A stretch of DNA of 59,749 nt, counting the filler. It is 9 parts of 9 records of this genome, joined end to end, with 100 filler letters (N's around TTAATTAATTAA, not from the genome) between each part and the next. Parts side by side here need not be neighbours in the genome. Positions count along the whole stretch, not along the records: positions 23,640 to 30,081 come from SRR31147125_268130; 8 more parts are not named here. The stretch is one strand, 5' to 3'. How positions within the stretch are numbered: the first letter of the stretch is position 1; every line of letters starts with the position of its first letter. The notes below the pieces were generated by a model. That model was given only the letters and a program-made list of their open reading frames with translations. It did no database searches and was not told the DNA's origin. The position numbers and the translations under genes were made by a program. Below are positions 23,640 through 31,462 of this stretch, one piece after another.

Positions 23640-24302
23640 AAAAAAACACCTGCCACTCAAAAACCTTACCGGGTCAATGGAAAGTACTATCGCCCTCTGA
23701 AAAGCGCGAAAGGCTTTACCCAAACCGGTATTGCCTCCTGGTACGGCAAGAAATTTCACGGCCGAAAAACCTCCAATGGAGAAACCTACAATATGTATAA
23801 GGTCTCGGCTGCCCATAAAACCCTGCCCATGGACACCTGGGTACGGGTACATAATCTGGAAAACGGAAAAAAGCTGGATGTTCGAATCAACGATAGAGGC
23901 CCGTTTGTCCGGGGGCGCATTATCGATCTTTCCTACAAAGCCGCCCGGATCCTTGGCGTGGCAAAAAAGGGGACGGCAAAAGTTCGCATCCAGGCATTGG
24001 GAAAATCCTCCGGAACAACAGGTGCCGGATCTTCAAAAAAGGTGATCTATACCCCTGTCGATTATTATAAAGGGAACTTCACCGTACAGGTTGGCGCCTT
24101 TACCGTACGGGCCAATGCGGAAAAATTACAAGCGCACTTGAGACGAAAGTACGGGCATGCACACATTACCCGGTATTGGAGTGGAAGCGCTCTGTTTTAT
24201 CGGGTAAGAGTCGGGAAATTCACCGATTTAAACAATGCCGAACGCTTTAGAAATAAAATGATGAACAGCGGAACCCAAACGGCATTTATCGTGGCGGAAT
24301 AA
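23640..24302 (+). CDS. rlpA: Septal lytic transglycosylase RlpA with SPOR domain (5' partial)
   Basis: 'GIASWYGKKFHGRKTSNGETYNM..SAAHKTLP', 'VRINDRGPF..GRIIDLS' and SPOR 'VQVGAF'. Confidence 0.92.
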   Translation, partial: KKTPATQKPYRVNGKYYRPLKSAKGFTQTGIASWYGKKFHGRKTSNGETYNMYKVSAAHKTLPMDTWVRVHNLENGKKLDVRINDRGPFVRGRIIDLSYKAARILGVAKKGTAKVRIQALGKSSGTTGAGSSKKVIYTPVDYYKGNFTVQVGAFTVRANAEKLQAHLRRKYGHAHITRYWSGSALFYRVRVGKFTDLNNAERFRNKMMNSGTQTAFIVAE

Positions 24303-24309
24303 GAAGCAC

Positions 24310-24905
24310 ATGAGGGGTTCAAAAAAGAGAGGATCTTCACCATCTTTACCGTTTTTTTAGACCGGGACGGCGTGGTTAACGTCGACTCTCCGGATTACAT
24401 CAAAAGCCCGGATGAATTTCATTTCATCCCCGAGAGCGCCGAGGCCATTGCCATGCTGACCCGTGCCGAATGCGATGTGATTGTCATCACCAATCAATCC
24501 GCCATCGGTCGCGGTATGATCAACCATGAAACGCTGCAGGCCATCTTCACAAAAATGAAAGACCACGTGGCCCGAGCCGGAGGAAAAATCAAGGATATCT
24601 TCTTTTGTCCCCATACTCCGGATGACGGGTGCCAATGTCGAAAACCATTACCGGGCTTGATAGAGCAGGCTGTGGATCGATACAAAATCGATTTGACCCG
24701 CGCCGCCATGGTGGGAGACAGCGCCAAAGATATCGCCTGTGCCCGTGCCGCCGGATGCGCCCAGGCACTATTTGTCCTGAGTGGAAAGTCCCCCGAAGCT
24801 CAGTTGGAAAAAGCCAAAAGAGCGTGTCCCCCGGATGGAATCTACACCGATCTGATGGCGGCGGCAAAGTGGATTATCCAATATAACGATCTTAAAATTC
24901 AATGA
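24310..24905 (+). CDS. gmhB: D,D-heptose 1,7-bisphosphate phosphatase; frameshift at the A-run 24321-24326
   Basis: The HAD motif 'VFLDRDGV' lies upstream of the track start; 'ITNQS', 'CPHTPDDGCQCRKP' and 'MVGD'. ATG 24310 joins the frame with one extra A. Confidence 0.88.
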
Positions 24906-27037
24906 TCACCGTCAACGGCACCCTCAAAAAAATCACCTTCAAAAACGAAGACAATCACTACACCATTGCCAGGCTGAAAGTCCCTGAAAGCCGGGAGACC
25001 GTCACCATTGTGGGCCATCTGGCCGGTGTGGCCGAGGGAGAAAGCCTCAAACTCATCGGCAAATGGGTAACCCACGCCAAATACGGGGATCAATTCAAGG
25101 TGGAGAGCTTTGATGTGACCCTTCCGGCAACGGTATCGGGGATTCGGGATTATCTTGGGTCGGGGATCATTCCGGGCATCGGAAAATCCATGGCCCGTCG
25201 GATTGTCAAGCATTTCAAAGAGCAGTCCCTTGAGATCGTCGAAAACGAACCGGAACGGCTCATGGAGATTGACGGCATCGGAAAATCAAAACTGGCTGCC
25301 ATCTCCAACGCATGGGACAAACATCATGCCGTCCGGAAGGTGATGCAATTTCTCCAGGACAAAGGGATCGGCATCACCCATGCCTCCGCCATCCTCAACT
25401 ATTACGGAAAAAACGCCCTGAAAGTGCTCAAGGCCAATCCCTACCGTCTCTCCAAAGATGTGCCTGACGCCGGATTTACCGTTGCCGACACCATCGCTCT
25501 CCAGAGCGGTATTGAGCGTGACGATCCGGAACGCATCAAAGCATCCCTTCTCTATCTACTGTTCAAAAATGAGGATGACGGACACGCCTATGCTCTGAAA
25601 AATGATTTGTTGATGCGCTGCATCCGATTGACCGCCGCAGAACGCACGCTGGTGGAGAAGGCACTGGATCATCTTGAAGAAGATAAGGAAATTATTGTTG
25701 AAGAAGAGAGGATCTACACCCGACAAATGCACCGGGCCGAAACCACCATTGCCATGAAAATCAAAGCCATGCGAACCATTCCCATACCGGACTACGGCCT
25801 GGATGAAGAGAATATCACCCATGAAGTGCTGTCACGGTTGGCCCTGAAACTCTCCGAAGAGCAGGTGGAGATCATCCGAGGCGTCCTCTCCCACCGGGTG
25901 GTGGTGATCACCGGAGGACCGGGAACCGGAAAAACGACCCTGGTCCGGGCAGTCTGTGCGGTCTTTCGAAAGCTTGGAAAAAAAATCAACCTCTCCGCCC
26001 CCACAGGACGGGCCGCCCGTCGTCTGGCCGAAGTCACCGATCGAAAAGCCCTTACCCTGCACCGGATGCTGCTTTATGATCCCGATGCGGAAGTGTTCAA
26101 TCGCAATCAGGACCATCCCCTGGACGCCGATGTGGTGGTGGTGGATGAAGCCTCCATGGTGGACGCCTATCTCATGTATCATCTCATCTGTGCCGTGCCG
26201 GTGAATGCCGTACTGATCTTGGTGGGAGACATTTTCCAACTCCCTTCCGTAGGGCCGGGAAACGTCCTGTCGGATATGATCCACAGTGAGACCGTCACCA
26301 CATTCTCCCTGACCCGAATTTTTCGCCAGGCAGAGCAAAGTCCCATTGTGATGAGTGCCCATGCCATTCGAAACGGCGAAATGCCCCTGCTGGAAAAGAA
26401 AAATAAAAGTGACGGACTGTCTGAGTTTTACTTCATCGAAACCCATGATCCGGAACGGGTGGTGGCCATCATCTCCGAACTTTGCAGTTGCCGTATCAAA
26501 AACGCCTTTCCCCATGTGGACGAAATCCAGGTGCTGACACCGATGCATAAAGGGGAAGCCGGGACCATCAACCTCAACCAGCGACTCCAGACCGTGTTGA
26601 ACGATCATCCCGGCGGATTGGAGAGCAGAGGCATCCTGTTCAAGACCGGCGATAAGGTGATGCATCTCAAAAACAACTACCAAAAGGAAGTGTTCAATGG
26701 AGATATCGGTATGGTGAATGAGGTGATTCCGTCTGAAAATCGATTGGTGGTGAACTACGAGGGGCGGTTGGTGGATTATGACATCTTGGAGTTGGATGAG
26801 TTGACCTTGGCGTATGCCGTGTCGGTCCATAAATCCCAAGGATCGGAATATTCGGCGGTGGTCATTGCCATGACCACCATGCACTACCCGCTGCTGCAAC
26901 GCAATCTTCTCTACACGGCCATGACACGGGGAAAAGAGCTGGTGATCATTGTCGGGGCAAGACGGGCAGTGGAGATCGCACTACATAACAATAAAACCCG
27001 GCTGCGCTTCTCCGGGTTAAAGGATCGAATCGGCTGA
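24902..27037 (+). CDS. recD2: ATP-dependent RecD2-like DNA helicase
   Basis: N-terminal OB/HhH region, 'ITGGPGTGKTT', 'DEASMVD', 'GDIFQLPSVGPG' and 'YAVSVHKSQGSEY'. Confidence 0.93.
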   Translation: MITVNGTLKKITFKNEDNHYTIARLKVPESRETVTIVGHLAGVAEGESLKLIGKWVTHAKYGDQFKVESFDVTLPATVSGIRDYLGSGIIPGIGKSMARRIVKHFKEQSLEIVENEPERLMEIDGIGKSKLAAISNAWDKHHAVRKVMQFLQDKGIGITHASAILNYYGKNALKVLKANPYRLSKDVPDAGFTVADTIALQSGIERDDPERIKASLLYLLFKNEDDGHAYALKNDLLMRCIRLTAAERTLVEKALDHLEEDKEIIVEEERIYTRQMHRAETTIAMKIKAMRTIPIPDYGLDEENITHEVLSRLALKLSEEQVEIIRGVLSHRVVVITGGPGTGKTTLVRAVCAVFRKLGKKINLSAPTGRAARRLAEVTDRKALTLHRMLLYDPDAEVFNRNQDHPLDADVVVVDEASMVDAYLMYHLICAVPVNAVLILVGDIFQLPSVGPGNVLSDMIHSETVTTFSLTRIFRQAEQSPIVMSAHAIRNGEMPLLEKKNKSDGLSEFYFIETHDPERVVAIISELCSCRIKNAFPHVDEIQVLTPMHKGEAGTINLNQRLQTVLNDHPGGLESRGILFKTGDKVMHLKNNYQKEVFNGDIGMVNEVIPSENRLVVNYEGRLVDYDILELDELTLAYAVSVHKSQGSEYSAVVIAMTTMHYPLLQRNLLYTAMTRGKELVIIVGARRAVEIALHNNKTRLRFSGLKDRIG

Positions 27038-27103: not shown

Positions 27104-29816
27104 TCAATATGCATCAATATCGGAGCTGTTGATCAGCACTTGCCGTGGTTTGATCCCATCGGACGGTCCGACAATTCCTTTTTTCTCCATGATATCGATG
27201 ATTCTTGCAGCTCGATTGTATCCCACCCGCAGTGCCCGCTGAATACCGGATATGGATGCCTGACGAGTGGAGACAACGAACTCCAGCGCTTCGTTGTATT
27301 TCTCATCATACTCATCATCCATGGTCTCGGTTGATACCTCTTCGGGTTCCTGCTCCGTAATTACATCAAAAATATAATTGGGTTTTCGCTGGGCTTTGAT
27401 AAATGCCGTGATCCGGCTCAGCTCTTCCTCTGATAAATAGGTACCGTGAACGCGGGTCAAGCGAGCGGTCCCCGGCGGCACAAACAGCATATCCCCATTT
27501 CCGAGAAGGGTTTCCGCCCCATTGGAATCGATGATGGTTCGAGAGTCGGTTTTTGAAGAGACCTGAAAAGAGATCCGGGTGGGGAAGTTGGCTTTGATAA
27601 TACCGGTCAACACATCCACCGAGGGGCGCTGGGTGGCCAAAATGAGATGAATCCCGGCGGCTCTTGCCATCTGAGCCAATCGCGTCAATGAGAGCTCGAT
27701 GTCCCTGGATGCGGTCATCATGAGGTCGGCCAGCTCATCGATGATCACCACAATGAAAGGCAGCGGGGTCAGCACCTCACCCTCTTCATCATATTGCGGC
27801 TCGTCGGCACGCTCAATTTTGCGATTGTATTGATCGATATTCCTCACTTGGAACTGGGCCAAGAGATTATACCGTCGATCCATCTCCCGGACCATCCACT
27901 GAAGTGCAATATTGGCCTTTTTCATATCCGTGATCACCGGCGTCAGCAGATGGGGGATATCATTGTAAAATGAGAGCTCGATTCGTTTGGGATCGATCAT
28001 CAGAAACTTCACTTCATCGGGTGAGGCTTTGTAAAGAATGCTGGTGATCATGGCATTGAGCCCCACGCTTTTTCCCGTACCCGTTGCACCGGCGATGAGC
28101 AGATGGGGCATTTTCTCCAACTGAACCACAACGGGGTTTCCGATGATGTCCTTACCAAGACAGATGGGGACCTTGGAGGGGCTGGTCACAAAGTCGTCCG
28201 AGGTAACGATATCGAGAAAGGGGACCAGGCTCTTTTTCAGATTGGGAATCTCTATCCCCATGACATCCTTGCCGGGAATGGGTGCCACGATCCGGATACT
28301 GAACGCACTCAGCGCCAAAGCCAGATCATCTGCCAGGTTCACTATTTTGCTGATCTTGGTTCCCGGATCGGGCTTATATTCAAATGTGGTGATGACCGGT
28401 CCCGGGGAGACCCCCATGACCTCGCCCTTGATACCGAAATACCCCAATTTTTTCTCCAGTTTTTCGGCATCTTGCCGAATTCGATTCTGGTCCACCTCAG
28501 TCTCTTTACTCTGATTCTGTAGAAATGAAAGTAGGGGAAGCCGGTATGATCCCGAGTTCTGATCCGCCGGCACCACCGGAACACTGTGACGTTTCATGGG
28601 AGTGTTGATAATGAAAGAGGGGGCATCGATTATGTCGCAATCAGACGATTCAGAAGATGTTGACGAAGGGGAGAGTGAAGGTAACGGTGGCGAGGACTCT
28701 GCATCCGGCCCTGATATTGCCGTTGCCGCTTCATTTGAGGGTCGTTGTTCCGCCGATTGAGACTCGGGCAAAGAGGAAGACGCAGATGACGCCGGTATTG
28801 ATGAGACGCTCCCCAACGCCTCGTTTTTTTTTCTTTTCATCCTGCTCACCCGATACATTGTAAGCCGGGGAGAAGGTGGTATCGAATGAAGATGACGCAT
28901 TAGATCCCGATAAAACCCGAGTTGACTCTGAAGAGGGAGACGGTGACTGAGATGAAGAAGGAATGGTCGTTGACTCGACCTGCTCATCAGATGTTGGAAC
29001 GTTTTTTTCAGCAGAAGAATTCGGGGATGGCGTCGACCTTTTTGAAACGGATGCTTTTTCATTCGGACTTTCATCGCTCAATGTCGACGAAGTCGATTCT
29101 GCGTTTGGTGCGACCGTCTCTGTAGAATACGAAATCGGCCTATCCACACGTTGCTCTTCCGAGCTGTCAGGTCCATGATCACCTTGTCTATCTTTTACAT
29201 CTGTTGTTTCCGAAGCAGTGCTCTGAGTTTGCCTGTTCTCTTCTTTCCGGGTTTCTTTGGGATGATCGTCAAACTCGGCGTCATCGTTTTTGTGACCGTT
29301 ATGAACCGTCTCCGGATCAACATTGTTTGAGTCATCGCTCATATCCGACATGATCATTTCATCGGCATTGACAATCTCTGTCAGAAGAATAGGCTCTTCT
29401 TCGATCGAAGCTGAGACAGGGGTAGATACATCGGACGGCCCCACCAAAGGTTGAGATGTGGATGGGCCGGCAGCAGCTCCTGGATTCAGCGTTTCACTTG
29501 CCTCTCGAAATGCCTGAACCTCATCGGTCAACAAGGCAAAGCGCTCTTCCAGCAAGACATGCTTTTCAGCGATATTCAACGCCGATAAAAGCAACATGGC
29601 ATATGGTTTCGAATTGCCGACGTCCCCTTCCATTCGACTCCCCACCGATTGCATCTCTTCGGTAACCATTTGGGCAATGGAATCCACCCGCTTCAGCAGA
29701 TCTTCGTTTTCAATTTTAAAACTAAACGGACCACAAGGGGTTTGTATAGTCAACACATCATCATCTAGGGCGTAATTTTTCTTTTCCACGACATCATCTA
29801 TTTTTTTTTGGTTCAT
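27104..29816 (-). CDS. ftsK: DNA translocase FtsK with an N-terminal ZapA-like domain and long S/P/E-rich linker, no TM domain; frameshift at the A9 run 28824-28832
   Basis: Motor motifs 'PHLLIAGATGTGKS', 'IDELADLMM', 'LATQRPSVDV' and gamma domain 'LRVGYNRAARII'. The N-terminal ORF has 'LLLSALNIAEK'. Both frames read as the same low-complexity linker on either side of the A9 run. Confidence 0.8.
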
Positions 29817-30181
29817 TGATCGTGATGGATCTACATCACATCATTGGTCTTCATCGATCCGATTGCCCATTTGCTCCCACTGAACGCATGAACACGCTTT
29901 ATTGAAAGAACGAGTTGATAATTAACACAATTGCCAGGGTTTATCTATTCAAAAAGTGGAACGGCATGGGGGATGAAAAAGGGGGCAACCTTGTGGAGAA
30001 AAAGAAAGAGGGAGAAAATAATAAAAATGGTTCGATGGGTAAACCGGTTTGGGTAAGGAATGAGTCCGAAATAACTTATCCNNNNNNNNNNNNNNNNNNN
30101 NNNNNNNNNNNNNNNNNNNNNNNNNTTAATTAATTAANNNNNNNNNNNNNNNNNNNNNNNNNNNNNNNNNNNNNNNNNNNN

Positions 30182-31462
30182 CCCTCCCCGCTCTACACCG
30201 GTGCGTCATCGGTCGGCCTCGTCCTTTTTCTGCTGTCCACCCTGTGGATCAACCGCGGCTTCATGCAGGTCGCATCCATCATCGCTCTGATGGCCGGTCA
30301 CGCACTGATCTTCCGGTACGGACTCGGTTTTGACCAGTGGCACGAAGCGCTGACGAAGGGCATTGTGATGCCGCTGCTGTTCGTCGTCATTCCGTTGATC
30401 GCGGTTCCGATCAACAACGGCGGTTACCTGGAATCGCTGACCGGATTCGTCGCCCGGCACCGCACCCGGATCGGTCTGGTCTTCGTGGCGCTGACCCTGA
30501 TAAACCTGGCCCTGGCCGTAGCACTCAACATCGCGTCGATTATCATCTACCAGCGCCTGCTGAACCCCCTCGACCTCCCCAAACGCTATCTTGCCAGGCT
30601 GCACATGACCGTATACGGATCGTATATGATGTTTTCCCCGTACGACCCGGCAATCAACATGATCCTGCTCTACCAGCATGTCCCGTACGCCCACTATTTC
30701 CTGCCGGCGGTAACGCTGGTTTCCACACTCATCGGCGTGAACCTCCTGCTCGTCCTGGCTGACAGAAAGCTCGTCGCGGACATGATGGATCGTCTGGGAC
30801 AAGTCTCCGGAGATCATTCAGCGAACAGGCTGTGGGGACTGATGGGACATGTGGGGGCGCTCATCCTGCTGGCCTTTGGCGGCTCGCTGCTGCTCCCGAA
30901 GACACCGACGATCTTCATCGTGGCGGGGATTATCGTGGTCTACTCTCTTTTCTGGACCGCCCGGATTGGTGCGTTTTCCCAATTGAAAACGGAGCTGGGA
31001 CGCTACAGCAGGAACTTCGACGACTATATCGAGTTTCTGCCGTTTCTGATCTCGCTGTCGTTCTTCGGCGCGGTGGTGTCACTGACGCCCCTGCGCGAAG
31101 GGATAGGCTCCGGCTTCGTCTATCTGAGCGAGTTATCGCCCTATTTCGTCGCACTGGGCTGCATGCTCCTCGTGACCGTGCTGAGCCTCTGTGGAATCCA
31201 CATGATCATCCCCGTCACCACGCTCGCCCTCACCGCGTCCCCGGCCAGCCTCGGCCTCTCTGCCGAGGCCTTTGTCGGGCTGCTGCTCGCCTCCTGGGTG
31301 TCCGGCATGGTGGTTTCTCCGTTTATCCCGTTTACGGTAATCGCCAGCTCGGCCGCGCAGACGAAGGTGACGACCTTTGCCTACCGGTGGGGAATGACCA
31401 TGCTCATACCGTGGCTCGCGATCGCTCCCGCCGTCATCAGTGCTATCAACCGACTGACCTAG
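30182..31462 (+). CDS. Multi-pass membrane protein, possible transporter (5' partial)
   Basis: About 10 or more hydrophobic segments; frame open from the contig edge. Confidence 0.7.
   Translation, partial: PSPLYTGASSVGLVLFLLSTLWINRGFMQVASIIALMAGHALIFRYGLGFDQWHEALTKGIVMPLLFVVIPLIAVPINNGGYLESLTGFVARHRTRIGLVFVALTLINLALAVALNIASIIIYQRLLNPLDLPKRYLARLHMTVYGSYMMFSPYDPAINMILLYQHVPYAHYFLPAVTLVSTLIGVNLLLVLADRKLVADMMDRLGQVSGDHSANRLWGLMGHVGALILLAFGGSLLLPKTPTIFIVAGIIVVYSLFWTARIGAFSQLKTELGRYSRNFDDYIEFLPFLISLSFFGAVVSLTPLREGIGSGFVYLSELSPYFVALGCMLLVTVLSLCGIHMIIPVTTLALTASPASLGLSAEAFVGLLLASWVSGMVVSPFIPFTVIASSAAQTKVTTFAYRWGMTMLIPWLAIAPAVISAINRLT

Follow-up and report, generated by a model that had tools for sequence, protein, structure and literature searches.

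Organization of the locus

A 59.7-kb stretch of DNA (59,749 nucleotides, filler included; hereafter the window) carries on its minus strand a gene for a DNA translocase of the FtsK/SpoIIIE type, which is predicted to have no membrane domain and in which a ZapA-like domain (here called the N-domain) precedes the motor. The host is a sulfate reducer, a Desulfamplus-like member of the Desulfobacteraceae. The gene is split in the assembly by a homopolymer, and its parts are as follows, all on the minus strand.

27104..29816, minus strand: whole gene, with ZapA-like N-domain, disordered linker and FtsK alpha/beta/gamma motor; about 903 residues if the homopolymer is A8; stop codon at 27104-27106
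29487..29783, minus strand: ZapA-like N-domain, residues ~12-110, from Pfam ZapA, an AlphaFold2 (AF2) model and hhalign
29574..29579, minus strand: Leu80-Asn81 of the LNI motif, invariant in 16/16 aligned N-domains
28541..29486, minus strand: low-complexity linker rich in S/E/T/P/D, which carries the frame change; no Pfam family
28824..28832, minus strand: A9 homopolymer (T9 on the plus strand), which splits the gene in the assembly; A8 restores one frame
28731..28823, minus strand: artefactual out-of-frame tail of the upstream reading frame after the A run; holds the only hydrophobic stretch of that frame (19-residue Kyte-Doolittle mean of 1.73 at residue 338)
28241..28540, minus strand: FtsK alpha domain (PF17854, 112.7 bits)
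27617..28213, minus strand: FtsK beta domain, the RecA-like ATPase (PF01580 FtsK_SpoIIIE, 246.7 bits)
28067-28090, minus strand: Walker A, GATGTGKS
27722-27745, minus strand: Walker B, IIDELADL
27620-27637, minus strand: ATQRPS
27131..27313, minus strand: FtsK gamma domain, the winged helix that reads DNA motifs (PF09397 FtsK_gamma, 97.8 bits)

A single gene across the A9 run

As assembled, the window contains two overlapping minus-strand frames. The upstream open reading frame (ORF1, 29816-28731) has 361 residues, and the FtsK-bearing frame is open from 29074 to 27104. They overlap at 28731-29074, with the A9 run inside the overlap, and are offset by +1; one A fewer yields 904 codons including the stop, or 903 residues. 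A Logan contig of run X1, the probable source run (depth ~99, 97% of sampled words present, and flagged as a possible source of the window DNA), differs from the window between 28400 and 29400 in a single respect, one letter missing at 28824. The same reads, independently assembled, thus give A8 and an open frame. The contig of run X2 covers 28898-29159 only, at a depth of ~2, and stops short of the A run, and run X3 has no contig over the stretch.

Genome comparisons give the same picture. An N-domain hidden Markov model (HMM) recognizes 27 related loci; in 26 of them one stop-to-stop frame, of 797-1217 residues, holds both N-domain and motor, and the remaining locus, L014, is interrupted only by 100 N. 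No pair of separate genes with an independent ftsK start, an arrangement that a first-pass annotation made from the sequence alone had considered, is seen among the 26. The Desulfamplus magnetovallimortis homologue (L001) is a single ORF whose alignment is colinear, first with residues 1-332 of ORF1 and then, beginning at the A run, with the FtsK frame. Because the X1 contig, the in-frame relatives and the colinearity of L001 agree, we are confident that 29816-27104 is one gene of about 903 residues, as the first-pass annotation had supposed on removal of one A. The A9 frameshift is very probably an assembly error; as a practical matter for the assembly, the gene is whole and the frameshift is to be corrected.

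The N-domain is a probable diverged ZapA

ZapA (PF05164) is the sole Pfam family with a signal upstream of the motor, at 14.9 bits (E 0.034, residues 42-110). Weak matches to the same part of the model occur in seven of the ten family members scanned (the window and six of nine others; E 1.8e-4 to 0.034), and scores across the family range from none at E <= 0.1 up to 22.2 bits, with L100 at 20.6. Alignments were also compared with hhalign. When 28 N-domains were set against 34 stand-alone ZapA proteins, all taken from same-class genomes, they matched with a probability of 95.9% and a score of 53.3 over 70 columns; with either alignment reversed the scores were 15.8 and 16.9, and the best of 40 column shuffles scored 19.5, with a top probability of 4.8%. 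An N-domain alignment (A1) matched an 11-sequence ZapA alignment at 97.1% (E 5.6e-11, 89 columns), and here the aligned region spans the beta-hairpin into the coiled coil.

The relationship is also recovered by searching genomes from either side. The N-domain profile picks out ORFs of 94-130 residues in other Desulfobacterota, with genome-wide E-values down to 6e-13, and all eight of those checked are Pfam ZapA proteins (34-77 bits). Conversely, whole-genome scans with the Pfam ZapA model list the N-terminus of the fusion FtsK at E <= 0.1 in three of five relatives (best match in G003, Desulfocicer vacuolatum DSM 3385, a draft genome). Two fusions have N-domains nearer to canonical ZapA. L108 (genome G389), a frame of 754 residues, carries the three FtsK domains behind a ZapA match of 35.0 bits that covers positions 1-84 of the 88 in the model, and it is the only fusion to exceed the Pfam ZapA cut-off; L097 (G236), a 660-residue frame of the same layout, scores 22.3 bits.

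The head of the N-domain, including the Leu-Asn pair, is the most conserved part of the fusion family. Leu80-Asn81 aligns with Leu59-Asn60 of Escherichia coli ZapA (NC_000913.3), and the available portion of one account describes N60 as contacting F2 of FtsZ, mutation of either residue strongly reducing or eliminating binding (PMC12754632). The divergent fusion L097 has Ser at the position of this conserved Asn.

An AF2 model of residues 1-125 (mean predicted local distance difference test score, pLDDT, 76.2) places strands at 15-18, 21-26 and 29-34 and helices at 38-41 and 44-59; the long helix that includes LLLSALNIAEK spans 69-110. For comparison, the stand-alone ZapA from Desulfosediminicola was modelled as a control (pLDDT 77.4); its strands span 9-15 and 18-24, one helix spans 28-43 and the long helix 55-101. 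The order of the elements is the same in both, with a loop before the long helix in each, and the coiled-coil helix is the best aligned and most confidently modelled part of the N-domain. Taken together, the sequence comparisons argue strongly that the N-domain is a diverged ZapA homologue.

Motor, linker and the missing membrane anchor

Pfam searches of the region 27104-28840 (minus strand) identify the alpha, beta and gamma domains listed above, and with Walker A, Walker B and the gamma domain all present the motor is intact. These features place the protein among the FtsK/SpoIIIE translocases. It is nonetheless distinct from canonical FtsK: it reaches 514.6 of the 1566 bits required by the NCBIfam equivalog PRK10263, whose alignment is confined to model positions 865-1348.

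The 220 residues of linker between the N-domain and the A run are 20% S, 10% E, 9% T, 9% P and 9% D, and the linkers of relatives are similar in composition and 187-596 residues long. We note that the linker of L108 (L108:324-2585) consists mostly of tandem EDIKI/EDIKT pentapeptide repeats, unlike the S/P/E-rich linkers of the window type.

Upstream of the A run (residues 1-330) the best 19-residue Kyte-Doolittle mean is 1.11, whereas paralogues of the transmembrane (TM) type reach 2.5-2.9 in four or five segments. The protein is predicted from its hydropathy to be soluble and to lack a membrane domain. The main features given by the first-pass annotation are thus all recovered: an FtsK motor and gamma domain with no upstream four-TM domain, an N-terminus of about 110 residues reading hairpin, helix, LLLSALNIAEK and coiled coil, and a linker rich in S, P, E and D that runs on into the FtsK frame.

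Distribution of the fusion family

Residues 1-125, compared by phmmer with 1.84 billion representative sequences, gave 16 matches at E <= 0.001. Five are full-length proteins of 798-1042 residues with the N-domain, a long linker and FtsK domains, and ten are shorter pieces; match P0016, an unrelated repeat protein, was dropped. The N-domain profile matched 28 database proteins longer than 235 residues, of which 27 have FtsK Pfam domains. None of the 28 carries a precomputed ZapA annotation, and the names given by their sources are 'DNA translocase FtsK', 'Ftsk gamma domain-containing protein' or similar; public annotation misses the ZapA part of the fusion. A profile search with A1 for proteins of near length returned one 93-residue fragment only, and neither a word-based search for longer relatives from a single N-domain nor a single-protein scan of genome contigs found relatives.

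With the motor as the query and one genome per species, 44 loci were found, and 27 are those matched by the N-domain HMM. The upstream region is cut by a contig end in three close relatives (L002, L024 and L028) among the other 17; L029 is a TM-type FtsK of 58% identity, and 13 are TM-type FtsK genes of Helicobacter or Lentisphaerota. Named carriers are Desulfamplus, Desulfocicer and 'Desulfobacterium' in the Desulfobacterales, and Desulfogranum, Desulfobulbus, Desulfopila, Desulfosediminicola and Desulforhopalus in the Desulfobulbales. Among 251 genomes sampled evenly across the phylum, two have a strong fused match and one a weaker fused match; among 121 genomes of the order to which Desulfamplus belongs, three have a strong fused match and one a more ZapA-like fusion. 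The fusion family is a minority trait. Single ORFs uniting ZapA and FtsK domains, which the first-pass annotation had proposed looking for in the Desulfobacterota, do exist there, L108 among them.

A second FtsK beside the fusion

The first-pass annotation had raised the question of whether the genome also has a TM-type FtsK and a stand-alone zapA, and this was followed in relatives. Eight of nine relatives' genomes encode, beside the fusion, a second FtsK of the four-TM type, in whose N-terminal part three to five segments are strongly hydrophobic, and all five genomes tested have a stand-alone zapA, above the Pfam cut-off in four. The fusion is therefore a second FtsK paralogue beside the four-TM FtsK in these relatives, a point beyond what the first-pass annotation had claimed. 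The TM-type gene of D. magnetovallimortis (G002) is interrupted by a masked stretch. In the draft genome of D. vacuolatum no TM-type FtsK was found at E <= 0.001, only the ZapA-like FtsK; either the draft has a gap where the TM-type gene would be, or D. vacuolatum makes do with only the soluble form. Beyond ftsZ itself, G002 contains two partial matches to the FtsZ model, at G002:C28:5244-5600 and G002:C26:43435-43788 (L104 and L105; 34.4 and 20.7 bits), which cover model positions 198-320 only and may be truncated FtsZ-like genes.

Motor identity to the window is 89-90% in Desulfamplus, 78-90% across the window-type fusions, 66% in L108 and 63% in L097, and it is 55-61% for the TM paralogues of related genomes. 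In a quick, midpoint-rooted tree of motors, 30 window-type motors form one group with a Shimodaira-Hasegawa approximate likelihood-ratio test value of 100 (in two rows a contig end truncates the N-terminus), and the window motor groups with Desulfamplus. L108, L097 and one TM-type row fall beside this group, in a part of the tree where the branching is not resolved.

The same tree places the Desulfobulbales motors (L003-L007, L009, L018 and L020) inside the Desulfobacteraceae rows of Desulfamplus. Such nesting is a hint that the fusion gene passed between the orders.

Comparison with known systems

Canonical FtsK of the E. coli type has a four-TM N-terminal domain, a Pro/Gln-rich linker and an alpha/beta/gamma motor. 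The fusion resembles it in its strong alpha, beta and gamma matches and in the long low-complexity linker between targeting domain and motor, but it differs in having no membrane domain, in falling far below the PRK10263 cut-off, and in the placement of its motor in a separate group of the tree. ZapA, for its part, is a stand-alone cross-linker of FtsZ filaments of about 100 residues. The fusion's domain shares with it, as modelled, the beta-hairpin, helix, loop and long coiled-coil helix in matching order, and its LNI motif keeps the Asn that corresponds to E. coli N60, but it carries 790 residues of linker and motor and has an extra N-terminal strand and a sub-cut-off Pfam score. L108 and L097 share the window-type architecture, without a TM segment and with a four-TM paralogue in their own genomes, and differ in their more ZapA-like N-domains and in the lower motor identities given above.

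The closest analogy is with SftA (YtpS/YtpT) of Bacillus subtilis, a soluble septum-associated translocase that acts beside the membrane-bound SpoIIIE. In both cases an FtsK-family motor with a gamma domain and without a membrane domain occurs beside a membrane-anchored paralogue (here in the eight relatives' genomes noted above). The systems differ in that SftA belongs to Firmicutes and the fusion to Desulfobacterota, and in that the targeting domain of the fusion is a recognizable ZapA homologue with a disordered linker of 187-596 residues. SftA is reported to lack a membrane domain and to be recruited by the FtsZ ring, and the available portion of that source does not describe its N-terminus as ZapA-like (PMC5357621).

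A proposed role at the division ring

The best explanation is probably that the protein is a soluble FtsK paralogue whose ZapA-like heads bind FtsZ and tether the pump to the Z ring beside canonical FtsK. A diverged ZapA domain, consisting of head and coiled coil, takes the place of the four-helix membrane anchor of FtsK. The heads would pair through the coiled coil, and the paired heads would either bind FtsZ filaments through a pocket with the conserved Asn or co-assemble with the ZapA of the cell. The hexameric pump would in this way be attached to the Z ring from within the cytoplasm, before the septum closes, with a linker of 187-596 residues allowing the hexamer to reach DNA, while the gamma domain would orient translocation so that DNA is cleared from the closing septum. 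The fusion would work alongside the membrane-anchored FtsK, as SftA does alongside SpoIIIE in Bacillus subtilis.

The component steps carry different weights. Targeting to the Z ring through the ZapA-like domain, taken by itself and judged from sequence, is about an even prospect. The fuller picture is more tentative, and is that a hexamer with at most three dimer heads on long flexible tethers is clamped to FtsZ filaments or incorporated in ZapA tetramers, giving a membrane-independent, Z-ring-coupled clearance in the Desulfobacterales and Desulfobulbales that arose independently of Bacillus SftA and was perhaps spread by transfer.

Several results weigh against a ZapA-like, ring-targeted translocase. 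The window's ZapA score of 14.9 bits is below the Pfam gathering cut-off of 23.8, and three of the ten members scanned have no ZapA match at E <= 0.1. The N-domain profile retrieved no ZapA chain from the solved structures of the PDB at E <= 10. Compared with ZapA, the N-domain gains one strand at its N-terminus and its head loop is longer, and Foldseek with its model found no ZapA among the matches listed, and nothing at E <= 0.001. This last test is weak but not blind, judged by the control ZapA model, for which ZapA chains (2mmv, 9isk, 4p1m, 9isj, 1t3u and 1w2e) appear at ranks 1-10, weakly, with E 0.005-0.3. Neither a second FtsK nor a stand-alone zapA lies within the window. With regard to the frame, the window may itself derive from run X1, and minority variants do not show in contigs, so that a mixed A8/A9 population may exist.

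For the ZapA homology of the N-domain, then, the sequence evidence is firm and the fold evidence compatible but short of confirming it. The first-pass claim of a ZapA-like N-terminus is borne out by the alignment comparisons (96-97%), the reciprocal genome searches and the Pfam-grade relative L108; of the checks it proposed for the N-terminus, HMM and structure comparison, hhalign recognized ZapA and the Pfam threshold was not reached, the order of structural elements matches the control ZapA model, and Foldseek listed no ZapA.

Of the alternatives, the one that survives best is that the N-domain does not itself bind FtsZ and that its coiled coil joins the stand-alone ZapA in mixed dimers or tetramers, reaching the Z ring indirectly. 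The retention of a stand-alone zapA in all five relatives' genomes tested is in keeping with this, as is the coiled-coil helix being the best aligned and most confidently modelled element, and the available portion of PMC12754632 describes ZapA as working in tetramers with two dimer heads. The strongest conservation, however, is in the head with its Leu-Asn match to E. coli N60, which would be superfluous for coiled-coil pairing alone, and we regard purely indirect recruitment as unlikely.

Somewhat less likely again is that a ZapA-derived N-domain has been repurposed, either to serve self-assembly or regulation of the hexameric motor or to tether it to a partner outside the divisome. The sub-cut-off Pfam score, the extra strand, the failure of Foldseek to retrieve ZapA and the Ser of L097 in place of the conserved Asn would all suit such a change of function. 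Against it, the LNI signature and the head elements are kept in 16/16 aligned members, an intact motor with its gamma domain accords with an FtsK acting on the chromosome, and SftA offers a precedent for soluble FtsK paralogues at the septum (PMC5357621, in the portion available).

The split in the reading frame could also be real, reflecting two genes (a long-tailed ZapA-like protein and a soluble FtsK with its own start), a pseudogene, or a phase switch or +1 frameshift at a slippery A9 run. The window as assembled does read A9, the FtsK frame has an ATG shortly ahead of the run, and homopolymers can vary in populations. We consider this improbable, however: the X1 contig is one letter shorter at a depth of 99, the 26 related loci in one frame have linkers that are not built around such a run, and promoter-like and terminator-like sites around the gene are no commoner than in shuffles (6 against 3.7 and 5 against 3.3 expected). 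There is only the slightest probability that the likeness to ZapA is a chance similarity of small coiled-coil-rich domains, since although neither sequence profile nor Foldseek gave a significant match to a solved ZapA, the controls score 15.8-19.5 against 53.3, the beta-hairpin is aligned as well as the helix, all eight N-domain-profile matches checked are Pfam ZapA, and the intermediate L108 exceeds the Pfam cut-off.

If the soluble, ring-tethered paralogue is the correct reading, the fusion points to a link between DNA clearance and the division ring of a kind not described before. Full-text literature searches, from whose coverage subscription journals are largely absent, turned up no description of a ZapA-FtsK fusion, in agreement with the first-pass annotation, which had not known the architecture from the literature. 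L108-like proteins would show it in domain databases, and the larger window-type family is annotated only as FtsK. Soluble FtsK paralogues are themselves known; what is new is one with a new and identifiable targeting head. Even for SftA, little is understood of how a soluble FtsK-type pump finds its way to the division site. The targeting head here is the homologue of a protein with mapped FtsZ contacts, which makes the hypothesis directly testable, and the family suggests that the membrane anchor of FtsK can be swapped for a cytoskeleton-binding module.

Gene neighbourhood and other features of the window

The gene lies between a divergent membrane-protein gene and a convergent gene for a RecD2-type helicase (24902-27037, plus strand). 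The RecD2 neighbour is syntenic in two Desulfamplus loci only (L001 and L031), and it was set aside as a functional partner on that account. The divergent gene is a hydrophobic ORF of 399 residues (30263-31462, plus strand) without a Pfam match at E <= 0.001. An RlpA-like gene (23793-24302, plus strand), some 3 kb beyond the end of the fusion gene on the downstream side, has double-psi beta-barrel (DPBB) and SPOR domains, the latter being a septal-peptidoglycan-binding domain; unlike RecD2, it is not syntenic.

The window also contains 16 runs of N between 5166 and 48168, arranged as paired 44-base runs 12 bases apart that recur every ~5.3-6.9 kb and amount to 704 N in total. One such pair (30082-30125 and 30138-30181) is located between genes, immediately upstream of the fusion gene, and the runs look masked rather than like scaffold gaps.

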